A DNA stretch of 64,000 bases, from the NCBI RefSeq assembly GCF_055900595.2, contig NZ_CM148325.1; one strand, written 5' to 3'. Made by a program: the position numbers and the translations under genes. Of the stretch, positions 26,730 to 53,423 are shown piece after piece (the stretch's first letter is position 1; each line of letters starts with the position of its first letter). Under the pieces are notes generated by a model. The model did no database searches, was not told the origin of the DNA, and saw only the letters and a list, made by a program, of their open reading frames with translations.

Positions 26730-27525
26730 TATTTATTCCTGAGAGAGGTAAACAACCTTGTTGTAATTGAAGCAAAAGATGCCGGTTTAACTGCCTTGCT
26801 GCCAGCGCCGGTTCTTGTGAAGTTGCAACGTAAAATTTATTGATTTCAACCCGATCATGGACTTCAACCGTAAAAAACGGCCTGGCAGGTGGAACGTCAT
26901 ACCATTTACTTTGTTTATCCAGCAGATGCTCGCTACAGCCGATCGTCACGATGCGTAAATCGCTGGCACAGCGCACGGCAATATTCGCCGCCCCGCGCTG
27001 CAGCGTCATTTTTTCACCGGGCTTCGTTCGCGTGCCTTCGGGGAAAATCAAGATAGTGTCGCCCTGTGCCAGTCGCTGTTGGCAGCGGGGTAACAGGGTT
27101 TCAGCTTCGCTGTTGATTAAATAATCTGCCGCCCGCACAACGCCGCCAAGAAAAGGATTTTTTAACAGCGCGCTTTTCACCAGGCAGTCAGTTTCTGGCA
27201 TGACTGACGCCAGCAGTACGTAATCGATAAGCGTGGGATGATTAGCTACGACGAGGCAACCGCGTTCCTGACGTAAAATTTCAGCGCCATCAATACGATA
27301 ATCCAGCACGCCAAGCCCTTTCGCGACAGTTAAAAACAGGCGAAAACTGGCGGCAATGCTGCGACGCGCCAAACGACGGCGGCGGGAAGTATCCCACACC
27401 AAAACTAACAATATGTTAAACCACACGACAGAAAGCAGCAGGCCGCCGAGACCAAACAGGGCAAAACACAACCCGGTCATAACCAGTCGCCATGTCCATT
27501 CCAGGCGTGACATCAGCTTACTCAT
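26704..27525 (-). CDS. apeD: PlsC-like lysophospholipid acyltransferase (ApeD-like)
   Basis: 273 aa; N-terminal TM anchor; HX4D acyltransferase motif NHPTLID; ATGA overlap with the apeC stop. Confidence 0.75.
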   Translation of the reverse strand: MSKLMSRLEWTWRLVMTGLCFALFGLGGLLLSVVWFNILLVLVWDTSRRRRLARRSIAASFRLFLTVAKGLGVLDYRIDGAEILRQERGCLVVANHPTLIDYVLLASVMPETDCLVKSALLKNPFLGGVVRAADYLINSEAETLLPRCQQRLAQGDTILIFPEGTRTKPGEKMTLQRGAANIAVRCASDLRIVTIGCSEHLLDKQSKWYDVPPARPFFTVEVHDRVEINKFYVATSQEPALAARQLNRHLLLQLQQGCLPLSGINNASALSGN

Positions 27526-28244
27526 CTACGGCTCCAGCGCCACTGTACGCGCTCACCAGGAAGTGAAAAAGCATCTGAATTTTGTAAATAGTGCTGTAAA
27601 AACAACATGCTTTGCGGCAGTGTTGTTTCATTGCCCGCAATGGCTGGCTGTGTTTCACATTGCCACTCATCGCCAGCTTCAATCACCAGCGCAACAGCAT
27701 ATGGCCAGGTCGGCATTTCTGCTGGGAGCTGCGGATGATAGAACTCAGGTAGAAAGCCATCAAAATCGACCATCAACACGCGCTGGTATCCCGCTTGTAA
27801 CAGGCTAAGCACTTCACACAAACCTTGCTGGAAAGTGTCGCGACCAGCCGAAAGCGATGAGGAAACGATCGGTTGTTTGGCCGCAATGGTCAGGTTACCC
27901 ACGGAAGAGTTGTGTACGGAGAGCGCGAAGTCCGTCGGAGAGAGCGCCTGTTCGGTTGCCAGTGCATGAACAATGCGGTAATTGCGCTCCAGCTCGCCAT
28001 GACGACTGGTATACAAAACGGCGTCTGGCTGATGGTGGCGTAGCATTGCCAGACCGCACTCCACGGCCAGTTTGCTGCCAGAACTGAGACGGCGGGCGGT
28101 CATCATTGGCAGTTCACTTAATTTTGCCAACGGTGCGGCAGGGTCAACCGCCCACGGCTGGCGCGACCATGCTTGCCATTGCTGGGCTTCGCTAAGTCCA
28201 GGCGCCAGTGCCTTCCAGTCGGTAATATTTAATGTAAATTTCAT
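27522..28244 (-). CDS. apeC: truncated KS-like protein lacking the active-site Cys motif; chain-length-factor-like partner (ApeC-like)
   Basis: About 240 aa with no TACSS-type motif. ATG at 28244 (MKFTLNI...) preferred over the track TTG at 28268. Confidence 0.6.
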   Translation of the reverse strand: MKFTLNITDWKALAPGLSEAQQWQAWSRQPWAVDPAAPLAKLSELPMMTARRLSSGSKLAVECGLAMLRHHQPDAVLYTSRHGELERNYRIVHALATEQALSPTDFALSVHNSSVGNLTIAAKQPIVSSSLSAGRDTFQQGLCEVLSLLQAGYQRVLMVDFDGFLPEFYHPQLPAEMPTWPYAVALVIEAGDEWQCETQPAIAGNETTLPQSMLFLQHYLQNSDAFSLPGERVQWRWSRR

Positions 28245-33878: not shown

Positions 33879-34098
33879 ATTGTACCTTTTTGATTAACCA
33901 TTGGGGTGAGGGAACCCAATACGTACGACACGTCTGTTACCTTAACATAATAACGTGCTGACCCTTTTTTCGAGCCGCCGCATGATACTGCTTTACGTTG
34001 ACAATGCAATGGTTAATTTTCACGCAATCGTTAACCTGGTTTGCTTACGGACTCACAGGGCGTAAACTAGCGCCGTTTTTTTATGTGATGAGAAGAAA

Positions 34099-34344
34099 AT
34101 GACCGATCTCTTTTCCAGCCCTGACCACACACTCGACGCACTTGGCCTGCGCTGCCCGGAACCAGTAATGATGGTGCGCAAAACTGTGCGCAATATGCAG
34201 CCAGGTGAAACGTTGCTGATTATTGCTGACGATCCGGCGACGACACGCGATATTCCTGGGTTTTGTACCTTTATGGAACACGAACTGGTTGCGAAAGAGA
34301 CCGATGGACTGCCTTATCGTTATTTGATTCGCAAATCGGGGTAA
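34099..34344 (+). CDS. tusA: sulfur carrier protein TusA
   Basis: 81 aa; CPxP active-site motif (LRCPEPVM). Confidence 0.9.
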
Positions 34345-34398
34345 GGTGGATCAGGCTAGCGGACCGATCGCGCTCAATTTTGCGGCTTGCAACCGGTT

Positions 34399-34535
34399 TG
34401 TAGGACGGATAAAACGTTCAAGCTGCATCTGGCGATACGGTGCGCAAGGCCTGATGCGACGCTGTCGCGTCTTATCATGCCTACGAGTTCGATGCCCTGT
34501 GTAGGCCAGGTAAGGCGTTTACGCCGCATCCGGCA
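34399..34535. repeat. REP/BIME cluster
   Basis: Imperfect palindromic GCCTGATGCGACGCTG...CGCGTC and GTAGGCC...GCCGCATCCGGCA units typical of E. coli REP elements. Confidence 0.75.
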
Positions 34536-34558
34536 CGCAAACGTAATGGAATGCACAA

Positions 34559-34867
34559 ATGGATTATTTAATTCCAGTTTGTCTGGCATTGCTGGGATTG
34601 CTCGCGATCTTCACCCCCAATTGGCTGATCCCTGTTTTTATCGTCGTGGGGGGATGGCTGGGGGTACTTGCCTGGGGTTGGCTCTGGCTAATGATTTTTT
34701 TACCTTTACTTAACGGTGTCGGGCTTGCTTATGCCCTGTGGTTGATGTTCAAAAGGCCATCCATAGCATCCCGCCTGGTTGCTGCATGCTGTGTTATCTC
34801 CGTCATTCTGATGTTAGCGCTTTATTATGCTTTCCTGACTATGCCGCCGTTCCCGGCCCAGCACTAA
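34559..34867 (+). CDS. hypothetical small Trp-rich membrane protein (102 aa)
   Basis: ATG start with GGAA 8 nt upstream; three hydrophobic segments; convergent with zntA. No homology evidence available. Confidence 0.35.
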   Translation: MDYLIPVCLALLGLLAIFTPNWLIPVFIVVGGWLGVLAWGWLWLMIFLPLLNGVGLAYALWLMFKRPSIASRLVAACCVISVILMLALYYAFLTMPPFPAQH

Positions 34868-34899
34868 GCCTGATAGCCAGAGGCTATCAGGCAACACTT

Positions 34900-37098
34900 T
34901 TACTTCCTGCGCAACAATCTTAACGCATTCGCCGTCACCAGCACCGTCGCACCCGTATCTGCCAGCACCGCCAGCCAAAGGCCAGTCATTCCTAACAGCG
35001 TTGTGACGAGGAAGATCCCTTTCAGCCCCAGCGCAATGGTGATGTTCTGGCGGATATTGGCGTGAGTGGCGCGTGCCAGTTCAATCATCTGCGCCAGGCC
35101 GCGCAGGTGGTTATGGGTTAATGCTGCGTCGGCGGTTTCCAGCGCCACGTCTGTGCCACTGCCCATTGCAATCCCTATGGCGGCAGCTTTCATGGCGGGC
35201 GCGTCGTTAATACCGTCGCCGACCATCGCCAGCGGCGCATGTTGATTCAGCTCGGTCACCGCTTTGACTTTATCTTCCGGCAACAGGCCCGCTTTAAACT
35301 CCAGCCCCAACTCCCCGGCAATTGCCGCCGCTGCGCGTGGATTATCGCCAGTGAGGATCACCCCTTTGACACCCAGGGCGCTCAGTTCGCTGATGGCAGT
35401 TGCGGCGTCGGCGCGCAGGGTATCCTGCAATGCAATTACGCCAAGCACGTCATCGTTACGCACCACCAGTACTACCGTTTGCCCGGCGCTTTCCAGTTCG
35501 TTAATTAAACCAGCAAATGCAACAGCCGGATGTTTTCCGGCAGCGCATATCAACACGCGCTCGCCGTTAATCAGTGCTTCAATACCAGACCCGACCAGCG
35601 CCCGCTGTGATTCGGCGGCGGGAATGGCGAGTTCAGCAACCTGTGCTTCGCGTACGATGGCTTGCGCCAATGGATGCGTCGCGCCTTGCTCGACCGCCGC
35701 TGCCAGTGTCAGCAGTTCAGATTCACTAATACCCGTTGCCGGATGAATCGCGGTAACGCGCGGTTTACCGACGGTCAGCGTACCGGTTTTATCAAACGCC
35801 ACCTGGGTAACACGACCTAGTTGTTCCAGCGCCGCACCGCCTTTAATCAACGCCCCACGACGCGCTGCTGCTGCCAGCCCGGAGGTGATCGCCGCAGGTG
35901 TTGAGATCACCAGCGCACACGGGCAGCCAATCAGCAGCAGCGTCAGCCCTTTATAAATCCACTCCTGCCAGCTTGCGGCAAACAGCAGCGGCGGCACCAG
36001 CGTCACCAGCAGGGCGACGGCCATAATCGCTGGCGTGTAAATACGGCTGAAACGGTCGATAAACCGCTCAATCGGTGCGCGGCGCTCTTCAGCTTCTTCG
36101 ATCAGTTTCAGAATCCGGTCAATGGCGCTGGCACCCGGTTCTGACAGCACTTCCAGCGTTACCAGACGGTCTACGCTGGTGGCGCCTGCAGGAACTTTAT
36201 CACCCGTCGCGCGTTCCACCGGAATGGATTCGCCGGTCAGGGCGCTTTCATCAAAACTGGCAAACGGTGAGAGCAGTTTACCGTCGGCAGGTAAACGCCC
36301 ACCCGCTGCGACTTCAATCACATCGCCCGGACGCAGGCTGTTAATTGCTACCTCTTCACGCTTGCCATTACGCAGGCGCGTGGCGGTTTCCGGTTTCAGC
36401 GCCATTAACGCGCTGACCCCTTGACGCGCGCGGCTGGCGGCCCAGCCTTCCAGTCGTTCACCAATCAAAAATAGCAGCAACACCATCGCAGCTTCGGCGG
36501 TTGCGCCAATAAACAGCGCGCCAATGGCGGCTACGCTCATTAACGTTTCAATGGCGAAGTAGCTGCCCGATTTGATCAGCCGTAATGCCTGGCGCACAAT
36601 CGGGTACAGCCCAACCAGCGTGGTCGCGATAAACGCCAGTTGCCCGAACGGATGATTAAACTGCTCCAGACCCCAGCTGATTGCCATCAACACGATTAGC
36701 GTAATCAGCGGCAGATTCTCTTTCAGGCGTGATTCTTGTTGTTCGTCGGCGGACTGTTCATCGCGCAGGGAATAGCCCGCTTTTTGCACCGCAGATTCAA
36801 CTTGTGCACGGATGTCATTGTCGGCATCAACCACCAGTTTTTCGGTGGCGAACAGCACCTGCACCTGATTCACGCCTGCAAGCTGGCGCACGGCATTTTC
36901 TACCTTGCGCGCGCAGGCGGCGCAGTCCATGCCGCTGACTTTCCAGCTATAGCGGGTGCCGGAGACGTTTTCAGAGAGCGTTGGCGTGCTGGAACATGCG
37001 CCGTCGCAGCAACAGTCGTTGGCGTTCTGTGCCGTGGTTAGCGGTTTGAACGCAGCAAAGTGAGGGGCTTTCTTGCCGTTATTGTCAGGAGTCGACAT
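34900..37098 (-). CDS. zntA: Zn/Cd/Pb-exporting P1B-type ATPase ZntA
   Basis: 732 aa; N-terminal GMDCAAC metal-binding motif, CPC transmembrane motif, DKTGT phosphorylation site. Confidence 0.95.
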   Translation of the reverse strand: MSTPDNNGKKAPHFAAFKPLTTAQNANDCCCDGACSSTPTLSENVSGTRYSWKVSGMDCAACARKVENAVRQLAGVNQVQVLFATEKLVVDADNDIRAQVESAVQKAGYSLRDEQSADEQQESRLKENLPLITLIVLMAISWGLEQFNHPFGQLAFIATTLVGLYPIVRQALRLIKSGSYFAIETLMSVAAIGALFIGATAEAAMVLLLFLIGERLEGWAASRARQGVSALMALKPETATRLRNGKREEVAINSLRPGDVIEVAAGGRLPADGKLLSPFASFDESALTGESIPVERATGDKVPAGATSVDRLVTLEVLSEPGASAIDRILKLIEEAEERRAPIERFIDRFSRIYTPAIMAVALLVTLVPPLLFAASWQEWIYKGLTLLLIGCPCALVISTPAAITSGLAAAARRGALIKGGAALEQLGRVTQVAFDKTGTLTVGKPRVTAIHPATGISESELLTLAAAVEQGATHPLAQAIVREAQVAELAIPAAESQRALVGSGIEALINGERVLICAAGKHPAVAFAGLINELESAGQTVVLVVRNDDVLGVIALQDTLRADAATAISELSALGVKGVILTGDNPRAAAAIAGELGLEFKAGLLPEDKVKAVTELNQHAPLAMVGDGINDAPAMKAAAIGIAMGSGTDVALETADAALTHNHLRGLAQMIELARATHANIRQNITIALGLKGIFLVTTLLGMTGLWLAVLADTGATVLVTANALRLLRRK

Positions 37099-38569: not shown

Positions 38570-39155
38570 CACTTTCTCCTTGTGCTTCGCGTTGATACAG
38601 GCGGTAAGCCACCTGACCTGCCACTTTTTCCCGATGTAATGACCAGTTCGCCGGAACGGTGGGGAGCCCGTTTTCGACTTCGCTTTCGACATAAATCAGG
38701 GCTTCGTCAGCCAGCCAGCCGTTATCTTCCAGTAAATTTATCGTCTCTTCTAACAAGCCACGGCGGAACGGTGGATCGACAAAAACGATATTATGCGGTG
38801 TGCCTTTTTGCGCCAGGAATGACATCGCGTTGCTGTTCACCACGCGTGCATTACCTGCTTTTAGTGTCGCCAGATTCTTAATTAACTGTTGAGAAACCGC
38901 GCGATCCATCTCAATCAACGTGGCCCCCGCAGCGTAGCGCGATAACGCTTCCAGCCCCAGCGCGCCGCTCCCGGCGAAGCAATCCAGACATTGGGCGTCA
39001 ACAATGACCGGAGCCAGCCAGTTAAACAACGTTTCGCGTACGCGGTCGGTGGTGGGGCGCAGGCCTGGGCTATCAGGAACCGGGAGTTTACGGCCTCGCC
39101 ACTGCCCGCCAATAATGCGGATTTGGCCGCTGCCGGAATGATTCGGTTTTTTCAT
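38559..39155 (-). CDS. rsmD: 16S rRNA (guanine966-N2)-methyltransferase RsmD
   Basis: 198 aa; SAM-binding motif DCFAGSGALGLEAL. Confidence 0.9.
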   Translation of the reverse strand: MKKPNHSGSGQIRIIGGQWRGRKLPVPDSPGLRPTTDRVRETLFNWLAPVIVDAQCLDCFAGSGALGLEALSRYAAGATLIEMDRAVSQQLIKNLATLKAGNARVVNSNAMSFLAQKGTPHNIVFVDPPFRRGLLEETINLLEDNGWLADEALIYVESEVENGLPTVPANWSLHREKVAGQVAYRLYQREAQGESDAD

Positions 39156-39304
39156 GATAAATTGCTCAATCCGCCAGATAACACATACTTGCAGGCGGTG
39201 ATGTGAATTAAGTTAAGTGATAGACTATTTCATCATTTTTTTAGCTGCTATGTACATAGCGTTAACGCTGTGCCATGAAGCAACAGCGAGGAGTGTAGTC
39301 GCAA

Positions 39305-40843
39305 ATGGCGAAAGAAAAAAAACGTGGCTTTTTTTCCTGGCTGGGCTTTGGTCAAAAAGAGCAGACCCCGGAAAAAGAGACAGAAGTCCAGAACGAACAA
39401 CCAGTTGTAGAAGAAATCGTTCAGGCGCAAGAGCCTGCGAAGGCTTCTGAACAAGCCGTTGAAGAGCAGCCGCAGGCGCATACTGAAGCCGAGGCGGAAA
39501 CTTTTGCTGCCGACGTTGTGGAAGTTACTGAACAGGTTGCTGAAAGTGAAAAAGCGCAGTCTGAAGTTGTTGCTGAACCGGAAGTTATTACTGAGCCGGA
39601 AACGATAGTTGAAGAAACGCCAGCGTCAGTCATTGAACCTGAAGTTACGCCAGAGCCTGTGGCTATCGAGCGTGAAGAGCTGCCGTTGCCGGAAGACGTC
39701 AAAGCCGAAGAGGTTTCGCCAGAAGAGTGGCAGGCCGAAGCGGAAACCGTAGAGATTGTCGAAGCGGCGGAAGAAGAAGCGGCTAAAGACGAAATCACCG
39801 ACGAAGAGCTGGAAGCACAGGCGCTGGCTGCCGAAGCGGCAGAAGAGGCGGTGATGGTGGTTCCTCCGGCAGAAGAAGAGCAGCCGGTGGAAGAAATCGC
39901 TCAGGAGCAGGAAAAACCGACCAAAGAAGGTTTCTTCGCGCGCCTGAAACGCAGTCTGTTAAAAACCAAAGAAAACCTCGGTTCCGGATTTATCAGCCTG
40001 TTCCGCGGTAAAAAAATCGACGATGATCTGTTTGAAGAATTGGAAGAGCAATTGCTCATCGCCGATGTGGGCGTGGAAACCACGCGTAAAATTATCACCA
40101 ATCTGACAGAAGGTGCGACCCGCAAGCAGCTTCGTGATGCCGAGGCGCTCTATGGCCTACTGAAAGAAGAGATGGGTGAGATTCTGGCGAAAGTCGATGA
40201 ACCGCTGAACGTTGAAGGTAAAACGCCGTTCGTGATCCTGATGGTGGGCGTCAACGGTGTGGGTAAAACCACGACGATCGGTAAGCTGGCGCGTCAGTTT
40301 GAGCAGCAGGGTAAATCAGTGATGCTGGCGGCGGGCGATACTTTCCGTGCAGCAGCGGTTGAACAGCTTCAGGTCTGGGGTCAGCGTAATAATATTCCGG
40401 TGATTGCCCAGCATACCGGTGCGGATTCCGCTTCTGTTATCTTCGACGCCATTCAGGCCGCTAAAGCGCGTAACATCGACGTTTTGATTGCCGATACCGC
40501 CGGACGCCTGCAGAACAAATCGCACTTGATGGAAGAGTTGAAGAAAATCGTCCGCGTGATGAAGAAACTCGACGTTGAAGCTCCGCATGAAGTTATGCTG
40601 ACTATCGACGCCAGTACCGGGCAGAATGCAGTAAGCCAGGCCAAACTGTTCCACGAAGCCGTTGGCTTAACCGGCATCACGCTAACGAAACTGGACGGCA
40701 CGGCGAAAGGCGGGGTAATTTTCTCGGTGGCTGACCAGTTTGGTATCCCTATCCGCTACATTGGTGTCGGCGAACGTATTGAGGATTTGCGTCCGTTTAA
40801 AGCGGACGACTTTATAGAGGCACTTTTTGCCCGAGAGGATTAA
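39305..40843 (+). CDS. ftsY: signal recognition particle receptor FtsY
   Basis: MAKEKKRGFFSWLGFG N-terminus, long acidic E/A-rich domain, GTPase motifs GVNGVGKTT and DTAGR. Confidence 0.95.
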   Translation: MAKEKKRGFFSWLGFGQKEQTPEKETEVQNEQPVVEEIVQAQEPAKASEQAVEEQPQAHTEAEAETFAADVVEVTEQVAESEKAQSEVVAEPEVITEPETIVEETPASVIEPEVTPEPVAIEREELPLPEDVKAEEVSPEEWQAEAETVEIVEAAEEEAAKDEITDEELEAQALAAEAAEEAVMVVPPAEEEQPVEEIAQEQEKPTKEGFFARLKRSLLKTKENLGSGFISLFRGKKIDDDLFEELEEQLLIADVGVETTRKIITNLTEGATRKQLRDAEALYGLLKEEMGEILAKVDEPLNVEGKTPFVILMVGVNGVGKTTTIGKLARQFEQQGKSVMLAAGDTFRAAAVEQLQVWGQRNNIPVIAQHTGADSASVIFDAIQAAKARNIDVLIADTAGRLQNKSHLMEELKKIVRVMKKLDVEAPHEVMLTIDASTGQNAVSQAKLFHEAVGLTGITLTKLDGTAKGGVIFSVADQFGIPIRYIGVGERIEDLRPFKADDFIEALFARED

Positions 40844-43935: not shown

Positions 43936-45039
43936 ATGAATATAAAGGGTAAAGCGTTACTGGCAGGATGTATCGCGCTGGCATTCAGCAATATGGCTCT
44001 GGCAGAAGATATTAAAGTCGCGGTCGTGGGCGCAATGTCCGGTCCGGTGGCCCAGTATGGCGACCAGGAGTTTACTGGCGCAGAGCAGGCAGTTGCGGAT
44101 ATTAACGCTAAAGGCGGTGTGAAAGGCAACAAACTGCAAATCGTAAAATATGACGATGCCTGTGACCCGAAACAGGCGGTTGCGGTGGCGAACAAAGTCG
44201 TTAACGACGGCATTAAATACGTGATTGGTCACCTCTGCTCTTCATCAACGCAGCCTGCGTCTGACATCTACGAAGACGAAGGCATTTTAATGATCACCCC
44301 AGCAGCAACCGCACCAGAGCTGACCGCCCGTGGCTATCAGCTGATCCTGCGCACCACCGGCCTGGATTCCGACCAGGGGCCGACGGCGGCGAAATATATT
44401 CTTGAGAAAGTGAAACCGCAGCGTATTGCTATCGTTCACGACAAACAGCAGTACGGCGAAGGTCTGGCGCGTGCGGTGCAGGACGGCCTTAAGAAAGGCA
44501 ATGCTAACGTGGTGTTCTTTGACGGCATCACCGCCGGGGAAAAAGATTTCTCAACGCTGGTGGCGCGTTTGAAGAAAGAGAATATCGACTTCGTTTACTA
44601 CGGTGGTTACCACCCGGAAATGGGGCAAATCCTGCGTCAGGCACGCGCGGCAGGGCTGAAAACTCAGTTTATGGGGCCGGAAGGCGTGGCTAACGTCTCG
44701 CTGTCTAACATTGCGGGCGAATCAGCGGAAGGGCTGCTGGTAACCAAGCCGAAGAACTACGATCAGGTTCCGGCGAACAAACCAATTGTTGACGCGATCA
44801 AAGCGAAAAAACAGGACCCAAGCGGCGCGTTCGTCTGGACCACCTACGCCGCGCTGCAATCTTTGCAGGCGGGCCTGAATCAGTCTGACGATCCGGCTGA
44901 AATCGCCAAATACCTGAAAGCGAACTCCGTGGATACCGTGATGGGGCCGCTGACCTGGGATGAGAAAGGCGATCTGAAAGGCTTTGAGTTCGGCGTATTT
45001 GACTGGCACGCCAACGGCACGGCGACTGATGCGAAGTAA
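43936..45039 (+). CDS. livJ: periplasmic Leu/Ile/Val-binding protein LivJ
   Basis: ATG at 43936 gives 367 aa with signal peptide ([23 protein letters not shown]). Confidence 0.9.
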
Positions 45040-45098
45040 TCATTAATCGGCAATTTGGGTTGCCGCCAAATTGCTAATATCGAGTACGCATGCTTCAT

Positions 45099-45197
<99 letters not shown>

Positions 45198-45238
45198 AAT
45201 TTCTCGTTGGTCATCACTTTTGAAATCAAACTTGACGA

Positions 45239-45622
45239 TTAACGCTTCTCCCAGCCGCCCTGTTGTGCCGTAAACCCCAGCGTCTGCATAAACGCCGTCA
45301 TCACGCCGCGATCTTCCACGCCTGCATCCGCCATCCACCAGCCTGAAACGCCAGGATTGTTACGCAAAACCTCTTCCAGCAAATATTGCCCCACACCGCG
45401 ACGTCGGGTGACTTCCCGCACGCGCAGGGAATCCAGTGCCCCCTCGGTGCCGTTTAAGGTTACCCGCACGGCCGCGAGCAGGCGCTCGTTAAAACGCGCG
45501 GCGTAGATACGGTGGTTATCGTCAACCTGTAAAGAGGAAGGGGAGTACTCCGGCCAGATCTTTTGCAGGTCAATCCGGTCCTGGTCGCTAAAGTGTTCTA
45601 AACGAATGATGGTCAGCTTCAT
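45239..45622 (-). CDS. panM: PanD maturation factor PanM (PanZ), GNAT fold
   Basis: 127 aa; synteny between livJ and livK. Confidence 0.85.
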   Translation of the reverse strand: MKLTIIRLEHFSDQDRIDLQKIWPEYSPSSLQVDDNHRIYAARFNERLLAAVRVTLNGTEGALDSLRVREVTRRRGVGQYLLEEVLRNNPGVSGWWMADAGVEDRGVMTAFMQTLGFTAQQGGWEKR

Positions 45623-46045
45623 GGGAAACCCGTGTAAATCACAAAAGTGGAACCAGTGTAGCGAAATAATTTAATCGGAGGCTTTCTCTTTTTTATTTCT
45701 TTTGGCAGGTGATTAATTTTTTAACAGCAATAATTACAAATTAAAAACATTAGAGAATGAAAAATGTCCAGCATAATCCCCTGAATGGTAGTGAATTATT
45801 CCGCCCTTTGTACCGTTATTTTATGCTGACAACGGCGCTTTTTTCTGTTTATCTATCAACAAATTCAGAATATTATCTGTTCTTAATCGACTGAAAAATA
45901 GGGATTTTAATCGCTATTATCACAAAACACTGCGCTAAACCCTTAATCAGACAGGCAAAAACAGTGCAGTATAAAAAAAGTACAGTCTGATTTGTTAACA
46001 CATAAAAACAAAGCAACACAACATCACGAATGGGGATTTTTGACT

Positions 46046-47202: not shown

Positions 47203-48129
47203 ATGTCTGAGCAGTTTTTGTATTTCTTGCAGCAGATGTTTAACGGCGTCACGCTGGGCAGTACCTACGCGCTGATAGCCATCGGCTACACCATGGTTTA
47301 CGGCATTATCGGCATGATCAACTTCGCCCACGGTGAGGTTTATATGATTGGCAGCTACGTCTCTTTTATGATCATCGCCGCACTGATGATGCTGGGCATT
47401 GATACCGGCTGGCTGCTGGTGGCGGCGGGATTCGTCGGCGCAATCGTCATTGCCAGCGCCTACGGCTGGAGTATCGAACGGGTGGCCTATCGCCCGGTGC
47501 GTAACTCTAAGCGCCTGATTGCGCTCATCTCGGCAATCGGCATGTCCATCTTCCTGCAAAACTACGTCAGCCTGACCGAAGGTTCGCGCGACGTGGCGCT
47601 ACCCAGCCTGTTTAACGGTCAGTGGGTTGTGGGCCATAGTGAAAACTTCTCTGCCTCTATTACCACCATGCAGGCGGTGATCTGGATTGTTACCTTCCTC
47701 GCCATGTTGGCGCTGACAATTTTCATCCGCTATTCCCGCATGGGGCGCGCCTGTCGTGCTTGCGCGGAAGACCTGAAAATGGCGAGCCTGCTTGGCATCA
47801 ACACTGACCGGGTGATTGCGCTGACCTTTGTGATTGGCGCGGCGATGGCGGCGGTGGCAGGTGTGCTGCTCGGTCAGTTCTATGGCGTAATTAACCCCTA
47901 CATCGGCTTTATGGCCGGGATGAAAGCCTTTACCGCTGCGGTGCTCGGTGGGATTGGCAGTATTCCGGGGGCAATGATTGGTGGCCTGATCCTGGGGATT
48001 GCGGAAGCGCTCTCTTCTGCCTATCTGAGTACGGAATATAAGGATGTGGTTTCATTTGCCCTGCTGATTCTGGTACTGCTGGTGATGCCGACCGGTATTC
48101 TGGGTCGCCTGGAGGTAGAGAAAGTATGA
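47203..48129 (+). CDS. livH: branched-chain amino acid ABC permease LivH
   Basis: 308 aa; operon position. Confidence 0.9.
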
Positions 48130-49403
48130 AACCGATGCATATTGCAATGGCGCTGCTCTCTGCCGCCATGTTCTTTGTTCTCGCGGGCGTCTTTATGGGT
48201 GTGCAACTGGAGCTGGACGGCACCAAACTGGTGGTCGATACGGCTTCAGACATCCGATGGCAGTGGGTGTTTATTGGCACTGCGGTGGTCTTTTTCTTCC
48301 AGCTTGTGCGACCTGCATTTCAGAAAGGATTGAAAAGCGTTTCCGGGCCGAAGTTTATTCTGCCCGCGATTGATGGCTCCACGGTGAAGCAAAAGCTGTT
48401 CCTCGTCGCACTGTTGGTGCTTGCGGTGGCGTGGCCGTTTATGGTGTCGCGCGGGACGGTGGATATCGCCACCCTGACCATGATCTACATTATCCTCGGC
48501 CTCGGGCTGAACGTGGTGGTTGGGCTGTCTGGCTTACTGGTACTGGGTTACGGTGGTTTTTACGCCATCGGCGCTTACACCTTTGCCTTGCTCAATCACT
48601 ATTACGGTCTCGGCTTCTGGACCTGTTTGCCGATTGCCGGACTGATGGCAGCGGCGGCGGGCTTCCTGCTCGGCTTCCCGGTGTTGCGTTTACGTGGCGA
48701 CTATCTGGCGATCGTTACTCTCGGTTTCGGCGAAATTGTGCGCATATTGCTGCTCAATAACACGGAAATCACCGGCGGTCCGAACGGAATTAGTCAGATC
48801 CCGAAACCGACACTCTTCGGACTCGAGTTCAGCCGCACCGCCCGCGAAGGCGGCTGGGATACGTTCAGCAATTTCTTTGGCCTGAAATACGACCCGTCCG
48901 ATCGCGTCATCTTCCTCTACCTGGTGGCGTTACTGCTGGTGGTACTAAGCCTGTTTGTCATTAATCGCTTACTGCGGATGCCGCTGGGCCGCGCCTGGGA
49001 AGCGTTGCGTGAAGATGAAATCGCCTGTCGTTCGCTGGGCTTAAGTCCGCGTCGTATCAAGCTGACCGCTTTTACCATCAGTGCCGCGTTTGCCGGTTTT
49101 GCCGGAACGCTGTTCGCGGCGCGTCAGGGCTTTGTCAGCCCGGAATCTTTCACCTTTGCCGAATCGGCGTTTGTGCTGGCGATAGTGGTGCTCGGTGGTA
49201 TGGGTTCGCAATTTGCGGTGATTCTGGCGGCAATTTTGCTGGTGGTGTCGCGAGAGTTGATGCGTGATTTCAACGAATACAGCATGTTAATGCTCGGTGG
49301 TTTGATGGTGCTGATGATGATCTGGCGTCCGCAGGGCTTGCTGCCCATGACGCGCCCGCAACTCAAGCTGAAAAACGGCGCAGCGAAAGGAGAGCAGGCA
49401 TGA
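48126..49403 (+). CDS. livM: branched-chain amino acid ABC permease LivM
   Basis: 425 aa; 4-nt overlap with livH. Confidence 0.9.
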
Positions 49404-50168: not shown

Positions 50169-50882
50169 ATGGAAAAAGTCATGTTGTCCTTTGACAAAGT
50201 CAGCGCCCACTACGGCAAAATCCAGGCGCTGCATGAGGTGAGCCTGCATATCAATCAGGGCGAGATTGTCACCCTCATTGGCGCGAACGGCGCGGGGAAA
50301 ACCACCTTGCTCGGCACATTATGCGGCGACCCGCGCGCCACCAGCGGGCGAATTGTGTTTGATGATAAAGACATTACCGACTGGCAGACAGCGAAAATCA
50401 TGCGCGAAGCGGTGGCGATTGTTCCGGAAGGGCGTCGTGTTTTCTCGCGGATGACGGTGGAAGAGAACCTGGCGATGGGCGGCTTTTTTGCCGAACGCGA
50501 CCAGTTCCAGGAACGCATAAAGTGGGTCTATGAACTGTTTCCACGTCTGCATGAGCGCCGTGTTCAGCGGGCAGGCACCATGTCCGGCGGTGAACAGCAG
50601 ATGCTGGCGATTGGTCGCGCTTTGATGAGTAACCCACGTTTGCTATTGCTTGATGAACCCTCGCTCGGACTGGCACCGATTATCATCCAGCAAATTTTCG
50701 ACACCATCGAGCAACTGCGCGAGCAGGGGATGACTATCTTCCTCGTCGAGCAGAACGCCAACCAGGCGCTAAAGCTGGCGGATCGCGGCTACGTGCTGGA
50801 AAATGGTCATGTCGTGCTTTCCGATACTGGCGACGCGCTGCTGGCAAACGAAGCGGTGAGAAGTGCGTATTTAGGCGGGTAA
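50169..50882 (+). CDS. livF: branched-chain amino acid ABC ATPase LivF
   Basis: ATG at 50169 gives 237 aa (MEKVMLSFDKV...); Walker A GANGAGKTT. Confidence 0.9.
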   Translation: MEKVMLSFDKVSAHYGKIQALHEVSLHINQGEIVTLIGANGAGKTTLLGTLCGDPRATSGRIVFDDKDITDWQTAKIMREAVAIVPEGRRVFSRMTVEENLAMGGFFAERDQFQERIKWVYELFPRLHERRVQRAGTMSGGEQQMLAIGRALMSNPRLLLLDEPSLGLAPIIIQQIFDTIEQLREQGMTIFLVEQNANQALKLADRGYVLENGHVVLSDTGDALLANEAVRSAYLGG

Positions 50883-50893
50883 ATTATCGAATA

Positions 50894-50921
50894 CCCGGCA
50901 GCCAGCTTCTGCCGGGTTCTT
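50894..50921 (+). terminator. candidate intrinsic terminator of the liv operon
   Basis: Stem CCCGGCAG / CTGCCGGG with a 7-nt loop, followed by TTCTTC. Confidence 0.5.
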
Positions 50922-51000
50922 CGTCCGTATACAGACTTGTTTCAACTGACCGGGAGGATTAAAACCAGACCACTTATTTGCCACGGAAAGGTTCCCTCCC

Positions 51001-51747
51001 ATGCATTATGCCGTTGTCGTCATGCTTGAACTGCTTTGCTGTATTCACGCTTATCGCTCCGGACAAGAGCGATACTGGATTTTTATTATCTTCTGTTTTC
51101 CGGTGATTGGCTGCGTGGCGTATTTCGTCATGGTTATGCTGCCTGAAACGGGCGCTGACCGTCACGGGCGTACTTTGCTGATGCGCCTGCAGGACAAAAT
51201 CAGCCCGGAACGCCACCTGCACAAATTAACCGAAGAGCTGGCGATTGCCGAGACCAATCAAAACCATTATGCGTTAGCTAACGAACTGGCGCGCCTTGGG
51301 CGTTATCACGAAGCCGTTCCCCATTATCAGCAGGCGTTAAGCGGAATTTTCGCCCATGAAGCGGTAATGATGTTAAGCCTGGCGCAGGCGCAATTTGCTA
51401 TTCAGGAGTTCGCCGCCTGTCAGCAGATGCTGGAAGATGTGATGCGTTATAACCCCGATTTTCAGTCGGCAGACGGGCATTTGTTATTTGCCAGAGCGTT
51501 AGCCGCACAAGAAAAATACGCTGATGCGGAAAGCGAGTTTGAGGTGCTTGTTTCTTATTACCCCGGCCCGCAGGCACGTATTTACTATGCGGAAATGTTG
51601 GCGAAAATGAGTCGGTTACGTGAAGCCAACGAGCAGTATGTTGCTGTAGTTGATACGGCTAAACGCTCAAGACCTCATTATAGAAAACACCACCGGGAAT
51701 GGATTAAGACCGCCAATGAACGGCTGAAGCAGAGTGTGGTGCAATGA
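51001..51747 (+). CDS. hypothetical membrane-anchored protein: N-terminal two-helix domain plus C-terminal helical (TPR-like) domain
   Basis: 248-aa ORF with a GGAAAGG Shine-Dalgarno, E. coli-like codon usage, its own upstream and downstream hairpins. N-terminus (YWIFIIFCFPVIGCVAYFV) resembles PLD-N-terminal-type small membrane domains. Confidence 0.7.
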   Translation: MHYAVVVMLELLCCIHAYRSGQERYWIFIIFCFPVIGCVAYFVMVMLPETGADRHGRTLLMRLQDKISPERHLHKLTEELAIAETNQNHYALANELARLGRYHEAVPHYQQALSGIFAHEAVMMLSLAQAQFAIQEFAACQQMLEDVMRYNPDFQSADGHLLFARALAAQEKYADAESEFEVLVSYYPGPQARIYYAEMLAKMSRLREANEQYVAVVDTAKRSRPHYRKHHREWIKTANERLKQSVVQ

Positions 51748-51876
51748 AAATCTTCTTTGCCGTTAGACCAGTGTCGCGGCAATCTTTTGTTAAAATTGAA
51801 AAATGTAGCTCTCATCGGGCAGCAAAACTGGACGCAGAATTTGCTGCCATTTTTGCTCTTCATGGTAAGGAGTTCT

Positions 51877-51907
51877 GGCGATTAGCTGACCGTTAATCGC
51901 CTCTTTT
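51877..51907 (+). terminator. candidate intrinsic terminator downstream of the 248-aa gene
   Basis: Stem GGCGATTA / TAATCGCC followed by TCTTTTC. Confidence 0.4.
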
Positions 51908-51970
51908 CAGTGCATTCTCGGGATATCCGTGCCCCATCTCCCAATTTCCCTCACCCACGCCGTCACCGCC

Positions 51971-51988
51971 TTGTCATCTTTCTGACAC
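51971..51988 (+). promoter_or_regulatory. Pho-box-like site in the ugpB promoter region
   Basis: TTGTCATCTTTCTGACAC matches the Pho-box consensus CTGTCATAAATCTGTCAC at 13 of 18 positions; further direct-repeat-like sequence follows. Confidence 0.45.
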
Positions 51989-52106
51989 CTTACTATCTTA
52001 CAAATGTAACAAAAAAGTTATTTTTCTGTAATTCGAGCATGTCATGTTACCCCGCGAGCATAAAACGCGTGAATTCGCGCATTCGGTACAACAAGAGAGA
52101 TAAACG

Positions 52107-53423
52107 ATGAAACCGTTACATTATACAGCTTCAGCACTGGCGCTCGGACTGGCGTTAATGGGGAATGCACAGGCAGTGACGACCATTCCGTTCTGGCATT
52201 CTATGGAAGGGGAACTGGGTAAAGAGGTGGATTCTCTTGCCCAACGTTTTAACGCCGAAAACCCGGATTACAAAATTGTACCGACCTATAAAGGCAACTA
52301 CGAACAGAATTTAAGCGCGGGGATTGCCGCATTTCGTACCGGCAACGCGCCGGCTATTTTGCAGGTTTATGAAGTTGGCACCGCCACCATGATGGCGTCG
52401 AAAGCCATTAAACCGGTATATGACGTGTTTAAAGAGGCGGGGATTCAATTCGATGAGTCGCAGTTTGTGCCGACGGTTTCAGGCTACTACTCCGACAGCA
52501 AAACCGGACATTTACTCTCCCAGCCGTTCAACAGCTCGACTCCTGTTCTCTATTACAACAAAGATGCTTTCAAGAAAGCGGGATTAGACCCGGAACAGCC
52601 GCCGAAAACCTGGCAGGATCTGGCAGACTATGCCGCGAAACTGAAAGCCTCTGGTATGAAGTGCGGCTACGCCAGCGGCTGGCAGGGCTGGATCCAACTG
52701 GAAAACTTTAGCGCCTGGAACGGTCTGCCGTTTGCCAGCAAAAACAACGGCTTTGACGGCACGGACGCGGTGCTTGAGTTCAACAAGCCGGAGCAGGTGA
52801 AACACATCGCCATGCTCGAAGAGATGAACAAGAAGGGCGATTTCAGTTACGTAGGGCGTAAGGATGAATCTACCGAGAAGTTCTATAACGGTGATTGCGC
52901 GATGACGACCGCCTCTTCGGGTTCTCTTGCCAACATTCGCGAGTACGCCAAATTCAACTACGGCGTAGGTATGATGCCTTACGACGCCGATGCGAAAGAT
53001 GCGCCACAAAACGCCATTATCGGCGGAGCCAGCCTGTGGGTGATGCAGGGCAAAGATAAAGAAACTTACACCGGCGTGGCGAAGTTTCTCGACTTCCTCG
53101 CGAAGCCAGAAAACGCTGCCGAGTGGCATCAGAAAACCGGTTATCTGCCAATTACCAAAGCGGCGTATGACCTGACCCGTGAGCAGGGCTTTTATGAGAA
53201 AAACCCAGGGGCGGATACTGCGACGCGTCAGATGCTGAACAAGCCGCCGTTGCCGTTCACCAAAGGGCTGCGTCTGGGCAACATGCCGCAGATCCGCGTG
53301 ATTGTGGATGAAGAGCTGGAAAGCGTGTGGACCGGTAAGAAGACGCCACAGCAGGCGCTGGATACCGCTGTTGAGCGTGGGAACCAGTTACTGCGCCGCT
53401 TTGAGAAATCTACGAAGTCTTAA
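52107..53423 (+). CDS. ugpB: periplasmic sn-glycerol-3-phosphate-binding protein UgpB
   Basis: 438 aa with signal peptide. Confidence 0.9.

Follow-up and report, generated by a model that had tools for sequence, protein, structure and literature searches.

A predicted membrane-anchored tetratricopeptide repeat protein encoded in the livF-ugpB spacer, apparently ancestral to the Escherichia/Citrobacter lineage and absent from most Escherichia coli

The 64,000-nucleotide stretch of DNA analysed here (the window; contig NZ_CM148325.1 of RefSeq assembly GCF_055900595.2) contains, in the complete 1,224-bp spacer between livF and ugpB (50883..52106), a gene whose 248-residue product combines an N-terminal two-helix hydrophobic hairpin of the PLDc_N type with a C-terminal solenoid of tetratricopeptide repeats (TPRs). 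Sequence comparisons identify this product as a member of the TPR superfamily bearing a PLDc_N hairpin, not as a cardiolipin synthase, and mark its gene as ancestral to the Escherichia/Citrobacter lineage and lost from most E. coli, K-12 included; where the gene is retained, its pattern of substitution is that of a real gene under purifying selection. On balance, and with modest preference, we interpret the protein as a TPR scaffold anchored in the inner membrane.

The gene had been proposed in a first-pass annotation made from the letters and a list of open reading frames (ORFs) only, and the call is borne out by agreement among homologues, the ATG at 51001 being the start consistent with all members of a 32-sequence alignment. 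The product is recorded in RefSeq as WP_032303945.1, "tetratricopeptide repeat protein". The G+C content of the gene is 50.2%, and 53.8% at third codon positions (GC3), compared with a window average of 52.9% G+C and a GC3 of 63-73% in the liv and ugp flanks. A 50-residue ORF that overlaps the TPR stop codon through an ATGA (51744..51896) was also considered; it begins with ATA in E. albertii and is missing from E1V33 and E. whittamii, and by this comparison is unlikely to be a gene.

The two-helix PLD-N-type membrane domain and the TPR-like C-terminal helical domain that the same annotation had suggested were both recovered by profile searches and structural modelling. Hydropathy peaks at residues 1-17 and 24-47, and an AlphaFold2 model built on the family alignment, with a mean predicted local distance difference test score of 87.5 and values above 90 over residues 71-240, places N-terminal helices at residues 2-20, 25-32 and 34-51, the second hydrophobic helix (25-51) being broken at P34. 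The Pfam PLDc_N model (PF13396) matches residues 26-43 with an E-value of 1.1e-4 over model positions 22-39 of 42 only, a match that is marginal for the window protein by itself and clear for the family, in which 8 of 32 aligned members match at E<=0.001 and 17 at E<=0.1. The features expected of PLDc_N, a pair of hydrophobic helices of which the second contains a PxxG motif, are present, and several family members in AFDB bear the name "Cardiolipin synthase N-terminal domain-containing protein". Across 174 sequences conservation is highest in this hairpin, with H16 retained in 97%, W26 in 99%, P34 in 93% (163 of 174), G37 in 99% (173 of 174), Y41 in 99% and P48 in 97%.

Beyond the hairpin, the model contains a linker helix (residues 54-67) and then eleven helices over residues 71-247, arranged as the tandem helix-turn-helix, right-handed solenoid that defines the TPR superfamily. 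Profile evidence agrees: Pfam TPR_19 matches with an E-value of 1.1e-5 and TPR_2 and TPR_1 with about 1.3e-4, and TPR_19 is matched by 30 of 32 family members at E<=0.001. Conserved positions in the solenoid are mainly structural (Ala, Leu, Gly, Pro), with the exception of helix 157-169 (S-A-D-G-H-L-L-F/Y-A-R), which has the lowest entropy of the soluble domain in the 174 sequences and is a candidate ligand-groove element; its SADGHLLFAR segment served as the search pattern for finding orthologous loci. No NCBIfam model reached its cut-off with the window protein, and a sequence search of solved structures returned generic TPR chains only, at E >= 0.004.

The protein belongs to a large family. 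A word-indexed search retrieved 40 relatives, from Escherichia, Citrobacter, Pseudomonas (about 44% identity) and a few marine gammaproteobacteria; an exhaustive profile search retrieved 682 clusters (formed at 50% identity) at E<=1e-30 and 2,068 at E<=1e-10, and the 150 best matches listed are nearly all 243-255 residues long and aligned end to end. Structure searches, together with profile and pattern searches, place further members in Xenorhabdus, Xanthomonas, Lysobacter, Luteimonas, Gilliamella, methanotrophs, Bradyrhizobium, Rhodopseudomonas and others. Public names of these proteins are generic throughout, and the libraries searched yielded neither a model nor a paper specific to the family. 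It is an uncharacterised family of proteins of about 245 residues, and the gene is an ordinary conserved hypothetical whose sequence is already in RefSeq. A connection with defence or phage was considered and rejected, PADLOC defence-protein models matching 0 families at E<=1 and phage matches being absent.

Among 5,426 complete E. coli genomes the gene is present in 659, chromosomal in every case, and absent from 4,767 (about 88%). Carriers include O157:H7 (EDL933, WP_000558842.1), O55:H7 and O145:H28; partial copies occur in Shigella, and the window allele, at 99% identity or more, is found in 11 genomes only. With the spacer as megablast query, 4,765 of 5,424 matching genomes, including a K-12-type O16:H48 strain, align to query positions 1042-1224 alone (51924..52106, the ugp promoter). 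The first-pass annotation had put the K-12 spacer at about 0.4 kb and supposed that the gene was missing from it; the K-12-type distance from livF to ugpB measures 398 bp, and the megablast result and a pairwise alignment of the spacer agree on the absence of the gene. In place of 50883..51923 the K-12 type has about 215 bp of unrelated sequence containing repeats of the repetitive extragenic palindromic (REP) or bacterial interspersed mosaic element (BIME) type. This version of the spacer, found in 4,630 genomes, has as its core a dispersed repeat that occurs at a median of 11 places per genome, consistent with REP/BIME.

The K-12-type spacer (locus 2286-2500) also has its own livF terminator hairpin (GGGAGUC...GACUCCUUU, -15.3 kcal/mol), followed by two REP-like palindromes. 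This hairpin differs from that of the window, and the liv terminators of the two haplotypes are therefore non-homologous.

Whether the additional sequence of the window represented an accessory insertion or a loss from K-12 had been left as a choice between the two, and of these our comparisons favour loss. An orthologue with 75% amino acid identity occupies the livF-ugpB slot of C. freundii in the same orientation, and the same slot and orientation are found in a Citrobacter-like metagenome contig, Citrobacter sp. NCU1, Pseudocitrobacter, E. albertii, E. whittamii, two cryptic-clade Escherichia species and genomes carrying an E. fergusonii-named variant, so that, besides Citrobacter and Pseudocitrobacter, no fewer than five further Escherichia species or lineages share the position. 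In E. albertii, the gene is followed by a window-type 3' flank and then by REP and the right-hand segment of K-12; positions 120-395 of the K-12 spacer align with this downstream sequence over 287 nt at 89% identity, a shared stretch about 96 nt longer than that between K-12 and the window. Because E. albertii thus links both haplotypes, the K-12 arrangement is best read as a derivative from which the gene has been deleted or replaced beside REP. Neither direct nor inverted repeats that might indicate a mobile element bracket the gene, phage copies of it were not found, and plasmid matches at >=80% coverage are confined to Ralstonia and Methylobacterium, where they fall on megaplasmids or chromid-size replicons and have identities of about 30-32%. 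Since the slot is the same across genera, insertion scars are absent and E. albertii keeps K-12-type spacer sequence, we infer that the gene is ancestral and was lost, not inserted; in most E. coli the loss probably came about through REP-associated replacement of the spacer.

Some relatives carry further genes in the same slot. In C. freundii (locus 6850-8324) the TPR gene and ugpB are separated by four extra genes, comprising ORFs of 93 and 135 residues without a Pfam match and then a Phd/YefM antitoxin and a Fic/Doc toxin; the livF-ugpB slot is a small integration hotspot. E. whittamii (locus 5597-5887), and E. albertii at the equivalent place, have about 400 bp extra between livF and the TPR gene, encoding a 96-residue hydrophobic ORF (MDFLTVVLKLFCC...); the window, EDL933 and the cryptic-clade loci lack this ORF.

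Where it is present, the gene bears the marks of constraint. The window and EDL933 alleles share 94.6% nucleotide and 96% amino acid identity, with a ratio of nonsynonymous to synonymous substitution rates (dN/dS) of 0.09. An uninterrupted reading frame is retained in EDL933 and E. whittamii, in the two cryptic-clade species and in three Citrobacter-type loci. In the type strain of E. albertii, NBRC 107761 (locus 6001-6744), a 1-nt deletion near codon 186 shifts the frame and leaves a pseudogene. Measured against Citrobacter, the rate of change of the protein is 3-5 times that of LivF and UgpB (dN of 0.16 versus 0.03-0.06).

In the scaffold interpretation, the hairpin (residues 1-51), homologous to the hairpin of two transmembrane domains (TMDs) of the cardiolipin synthase ClsA, would hold the protein in the cytoplasmic membrane, and a short basic linker would lead on to the TPR solenoid, about 180 residues in length. 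The solenoid, most probably cytoplasmic, would bind a partner protein or peptide through its groove, with the conserved residues H160, L161 and R165 in helix A of repeat 3 as candidate contacts, and the partner would in this way be tethered or organised at the membrane.

A cytoplasmic location of the TPR domain, which we consider, in rough terms, moderately probable, is argued by analogy with ClsA. In wild-type E. coli the globular domain of ClsA is cytoplasmic and is kept so by a linker of net charge +3 after TMD2 (PMC11698083), and insertion of two Glu residues, giving a net charge of +1, relocates the domain entirely to the periplasm (PMC11698083; Sawasato, Dowhan and Bogdanov). Depletion of phosphatidylethanolamine, or osmotic down-shock, inverts ClsA, and the hairpin is required for this inversion; TMD2 carries a conserved PxxG motif, which is not required for dual topology (PMC11698083). 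In the family described here the linker (20 residues) has a mean net charge of +2.6, a mode of +3 and a range of -2 to +6, the loop between the two transmembrane helices (TM1 and TM2) has a mean charge of +1.65, the N-terminus is uncharged, and cysteines of the soluble domain show no bias toward even numbers (odd in 90 sequences, even and non-zero in 64). The PxxG motif shared with ClsA, a family linker charge like that of wild-type ClsA, the basic loop, the uncharged N-terminus and the lack of preference for even cysteine numbers together favour the cytoplasmic face.

Several observations weigh against this interpretation, or against parts of it. In the window protein the net charge of the linker (PETGADRHGRTLLMRLQDKI) is just +1, two acidic residues lying within 5 positions of TM2 (PETGAD), and because the ClsA mutant of net charge +1 flips, orientation is uncertain for the enterobacterial members. 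A scaffold or binding function is suggested solely by the modelled fold. The gene is dispensable, as its absence from 88% of E. coli and the frameshift in the E. albertii type strain attest, and a search for expression data on it found none. Finally, two passes over 95 loci revealed no conserved neighbour beyond the synteny of close relatives, a neighbour being common to no more than 3 of 35 diverse loci. The first pass gave an apparent second neighbour cluster, comprising 19 loci over the position of the family gene itself, for which the simplest explanation is an antisense shadow ORF chosen by the ORF caller in high-GC genomes.

With the same anchor, the TPR domain might instead face the periplasm, through an N-out/C-out hairpin or through TM2 acting as a signal anchor, and the protein could then serve as an adaptor in envelope quality control or assembly in the manner of YfgM, CpoB or NlpI. 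The low linker charge of the window protein makes this arrangement worth entertaining, and we consider it unlikely, though well short of negligible: the family linker (mean +2.6, mode +3) resembles that of cytoplasmic wild-type ClsA, there is no even-cysteine bias, the TPR matches are all generic, and the CpoB/YbgF model (TIGR02795), examined as a possible identity, scores 29.5 bits against a cut-off of 90.1. By a further analogy with ClsA, the hairpin might be a lipid-responsive flipping module, with the face occupied by the TPR domain set by phosphatidylethanolamine content or osmotic down-shock and the protein acting as a sensor or switch of membrane state. Such a device would accord with the need for the ClsA hairpin in inversion on phosphatidylethanolamine depletion and osmotic down-shock, with the hairpin, not the TPR domain, being most conserved in the family, and with a range of linker charge that straddles the ClsA tipping point; we nonetheless hold it to be improbable, since the argument is one of analogy, inversion having been shown for ClsA only, and the PxxG motif is dispensable for dual topology there. 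If it were true, a family of at least 680 clusters in Proteobacteria would shift a TPR binding domain from one face of the inner membrane to the other according to lipid or osmotic state, which would constitute a second, and non-enzymatic, case of regulated topological inversion.

Two other explanations concern the standing of the gene itself. It could be a decaying relic, without current function in E. coli and kept in some lineages by chance, as its absence from 4,767 of 5,426 complete genomes, the E. albertii frameshift, the partial copies in Shigella and its rapid evolution relative to its flanks might suggest; a dN/dS of 0.09 between alleles that differ at 5% of nucleotides, the intact 248-codon frame in EDL933, E. 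whittamii, both cryptic-clade species and Citrobacter, and conservation of the family from end to end across Proteobacteria speak against decay, to which we give slightly less credence still than to a flipping hairpin. Horizontal acquisition, with the gene entering some lineages as an accessory cassette at a livF-ugpB hotspot, would fit the variability of the slot (four extra genes in C. freundii, the 96-residue ORF in E. whittamii and E. albertii) and a GC3 below that of the flanks. It is nevertheless very improbable and disfavoured, given that position and orientation are identical in all Escherichia, Citrobacter and Pseudocitrobacter loci examined, that divergence of the gene follows that of its flanks in rank order, and that no target-site duplication, inverted repeat, integrase, phage or mobile-plasmid copy or PADLOC match was found. 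The membrane-anchored TPR scaffold, ancestral and subsequently lost, remains our preferred account.

Features of the gene and its surroundings are collected in Table 1. The first-pass annotation had described a stand-alone gene with a strong Shine-Dalgarno sequence and a hairpin on each side. Hairpins on both sides are supported by fold z-scores, and the GGAAAGG is in place, moderate or acceptable and not strong. Autonomous transcription is not established, because the leader lacks a convincing sigma-70 promoter and the U-tract of the livF terminator is weak. The upstream hairpin, probably the liv operon terminator, has a poor U-tract (UUCUUCGU) and was not called by the terminator scan; the promoter scan called no sigma-70-like promoter in the 83-nt leader, leaving a sole weak candidate read by eye. 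In an alignment of 10 loci the leader is conserved among Escherichia species, including those that differ in the sequence further upstream. A structure in it involving GGGAGG/CCCUCC pairing around the Shine-Dalgarno sequence was rejected, the fold being non-significant (z 0.06), and Rfam gave no match at E<=1 over 50700..52300. Transcription might start at the gene's own weak promoter or reach it by read-through past a leaky livF terminator. Downstream, the first hairpin is possibly a terminator and the second is the intrinsic terminator of the TPR gene, insulating the ugp promoter; in tandem the two would shield ugp from the TPR gene.

Table 1. Positions of the TPR gene, its protein domains and the signals around it in the window.
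Feature	Position	Strand	Remarks
Variable segment carrying the gene	50883..51923	.	1,041 bp; megablast and pairwise alignment with K-12
Hairpin directly after the livF stop	50893..50917	+	RNA fold -20 kcal/mol, z -4.2
5' leader, 83 nt	50918..51000	+	Alignment of 10 loci
Weak promoter candidate, the sole one	TTGTTT 50937-50942, 17 nt, TAAAAC 50960-50965	+	Read by eye
GGAAAGG, Shine-Dalgarno-like	50985..50991	+	9 nt upstream of ATG; usable
Coding sequence, 248-residue PLDc_N and TPR membrane protein (predicted)	51001..51747	+	ATG start; sole long ORF in the spacer
Residues 1-51, two-helix hydrophobic hairpin, PLDc_N type	51001..51153	+	Pfam, hydropathy, AlphaFold2, conservation
Residues 71-247, TPR solenoid, about 4.5 repeats and capping helix	51211..51741	+	
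Codons 156-165 (SADGHLLFAR), start of helix A, third TPR repeat	51466..51495	+	Invariant in 32-sequence alignment
First 3' hairpin, then AUUUUUG (possible terminator)	51818..51848	+	Fold -19.6 kcal/mol, z -2.3
Second 3' hairpin and UCUUUU	51877..51901	+	Fold -19.5 kcal/mol, z -3.7; called by terminator scan
ugpB promoter and leader region	51924..52106	+	99.5% identity to K-12; invariant across Escherichia; outside the variable segment

The window as a whole is about 95-96% identical to both K-12 and EDL933. This 5% divergence holds over 44 kb, and the window therefore derives from a deep-branching lineage; introgression as a cause of local divergence was rejected, the same divergence from K-12 and EDL933 being found window-wide. 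Against this background, identity to K-12 dips to 92.5% at 39-40 kb (39001-40000), 92.0% at 48-49 kb (48001-49000, inside livM, 48126..49403) and 92.9% at 57-58 kb (57001-58000). The interval 34001-35000 is 43% alignable to either K-12 or EDL933, indicating a small indel or replacement relative to both. EDL933 (locus 27312-28112) has an ataR/ataT toxin-antitoxin pair between livJ and panM that K-12 lacks; the window appears to lack it also, its interval ~45000-46000 aligning fully to K-12 and 80% to EDL933.

The gene accounts for a small chromosomal difference between K-12 and such pathogenic or deep-branching lineages of Escherichia as O157:H7, O55:H7, O145:H28, E. albertii and the cryptic clades, and has never been studied because the laboratory strain K-12 lacks it. 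As a well-behaved conserved hypothetical it will not surprise a specialist. Its locus offers a clean example of a REP-bearing spacer replacing an ancestral gene, and its hairpin, held in common with the lipid-switchable ClsA, would make the protein a simple, non-enzymatic test case for the role of PLDc_N hairpins.

Among known systems, the best compact structural matches to the soluble domain are MamA and YrrB, bacterial TPR scaffolds that stand alone and whose structures have been solved (about 160 residues superposed at an rmsd of 2.5-4 A, with a TM-score of about 0.75 on the target and 13-20% sequence identity); unlike the present protein both are soluble and without a membrane hairpin, and their biology is unrelated (magnetosome coat for MamA, unknown for YrrB). 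YfgM, the PpiD partner at SecYEG, and CpoB/YbgF differ in facing the periplasm, YfgM through a single transmembrane anchor, and their likeness is limited to the generic TPR fold. ClsA shares the architecture of two hydrophobic helices, a short basic loop and a basic linker to a globular domain, together with a W-x7-P-x2-G-x3-Y pattern in the second helix (P34/G37 here, P48/G51 in ClsA), a similarity picked up by Pfam and NCBIfam. The globular domain is, however, a TPR solenoid here and a catalytic PLD/HKD domain in ClsA, H16 in TM1 is specific to the TPR family, and the window linker carries +1 where that of ClsA carries +3. Identity as a cardiolipin synthase (ClsA, TIGR04265) was rejected: the model scores 12.5 bits against a cut-off of 290, over residues 22-82 only, and Pfam finds no PLDc catalytic domain.

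In E. coli, LapB (YciM) is a TPR adaptor tethered to the inner membrane that presents its client LpxC to the membrane machine FtsH, and like the protein described here it combines a small N-terminal membrane anchor with a TPR domain, cytoplasmic in LapB. The two are nonetheless distinct: LapB is essential and 389 residues long, with one transmembrane helix, about nine TPRs and, at its C-terminus, a rubredoxin-like zinc domain, whereas the present protein is dispensable, spans 248 residues and combines two helices with about 4.5 TPRs, without a zinc motif. Membership of the LapB/YciM family was accordingly rejected, no LapB model in NCBIfam matching at E<=1 and the C-terminal 100 residues being without Cys pairs. 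Although it has the defining features of neither, the protein may by analogy work as the membrane-tethered TPR adaptors do, in the manner of LapB or, should its TPR domain prove periplasmic, of YfgM.
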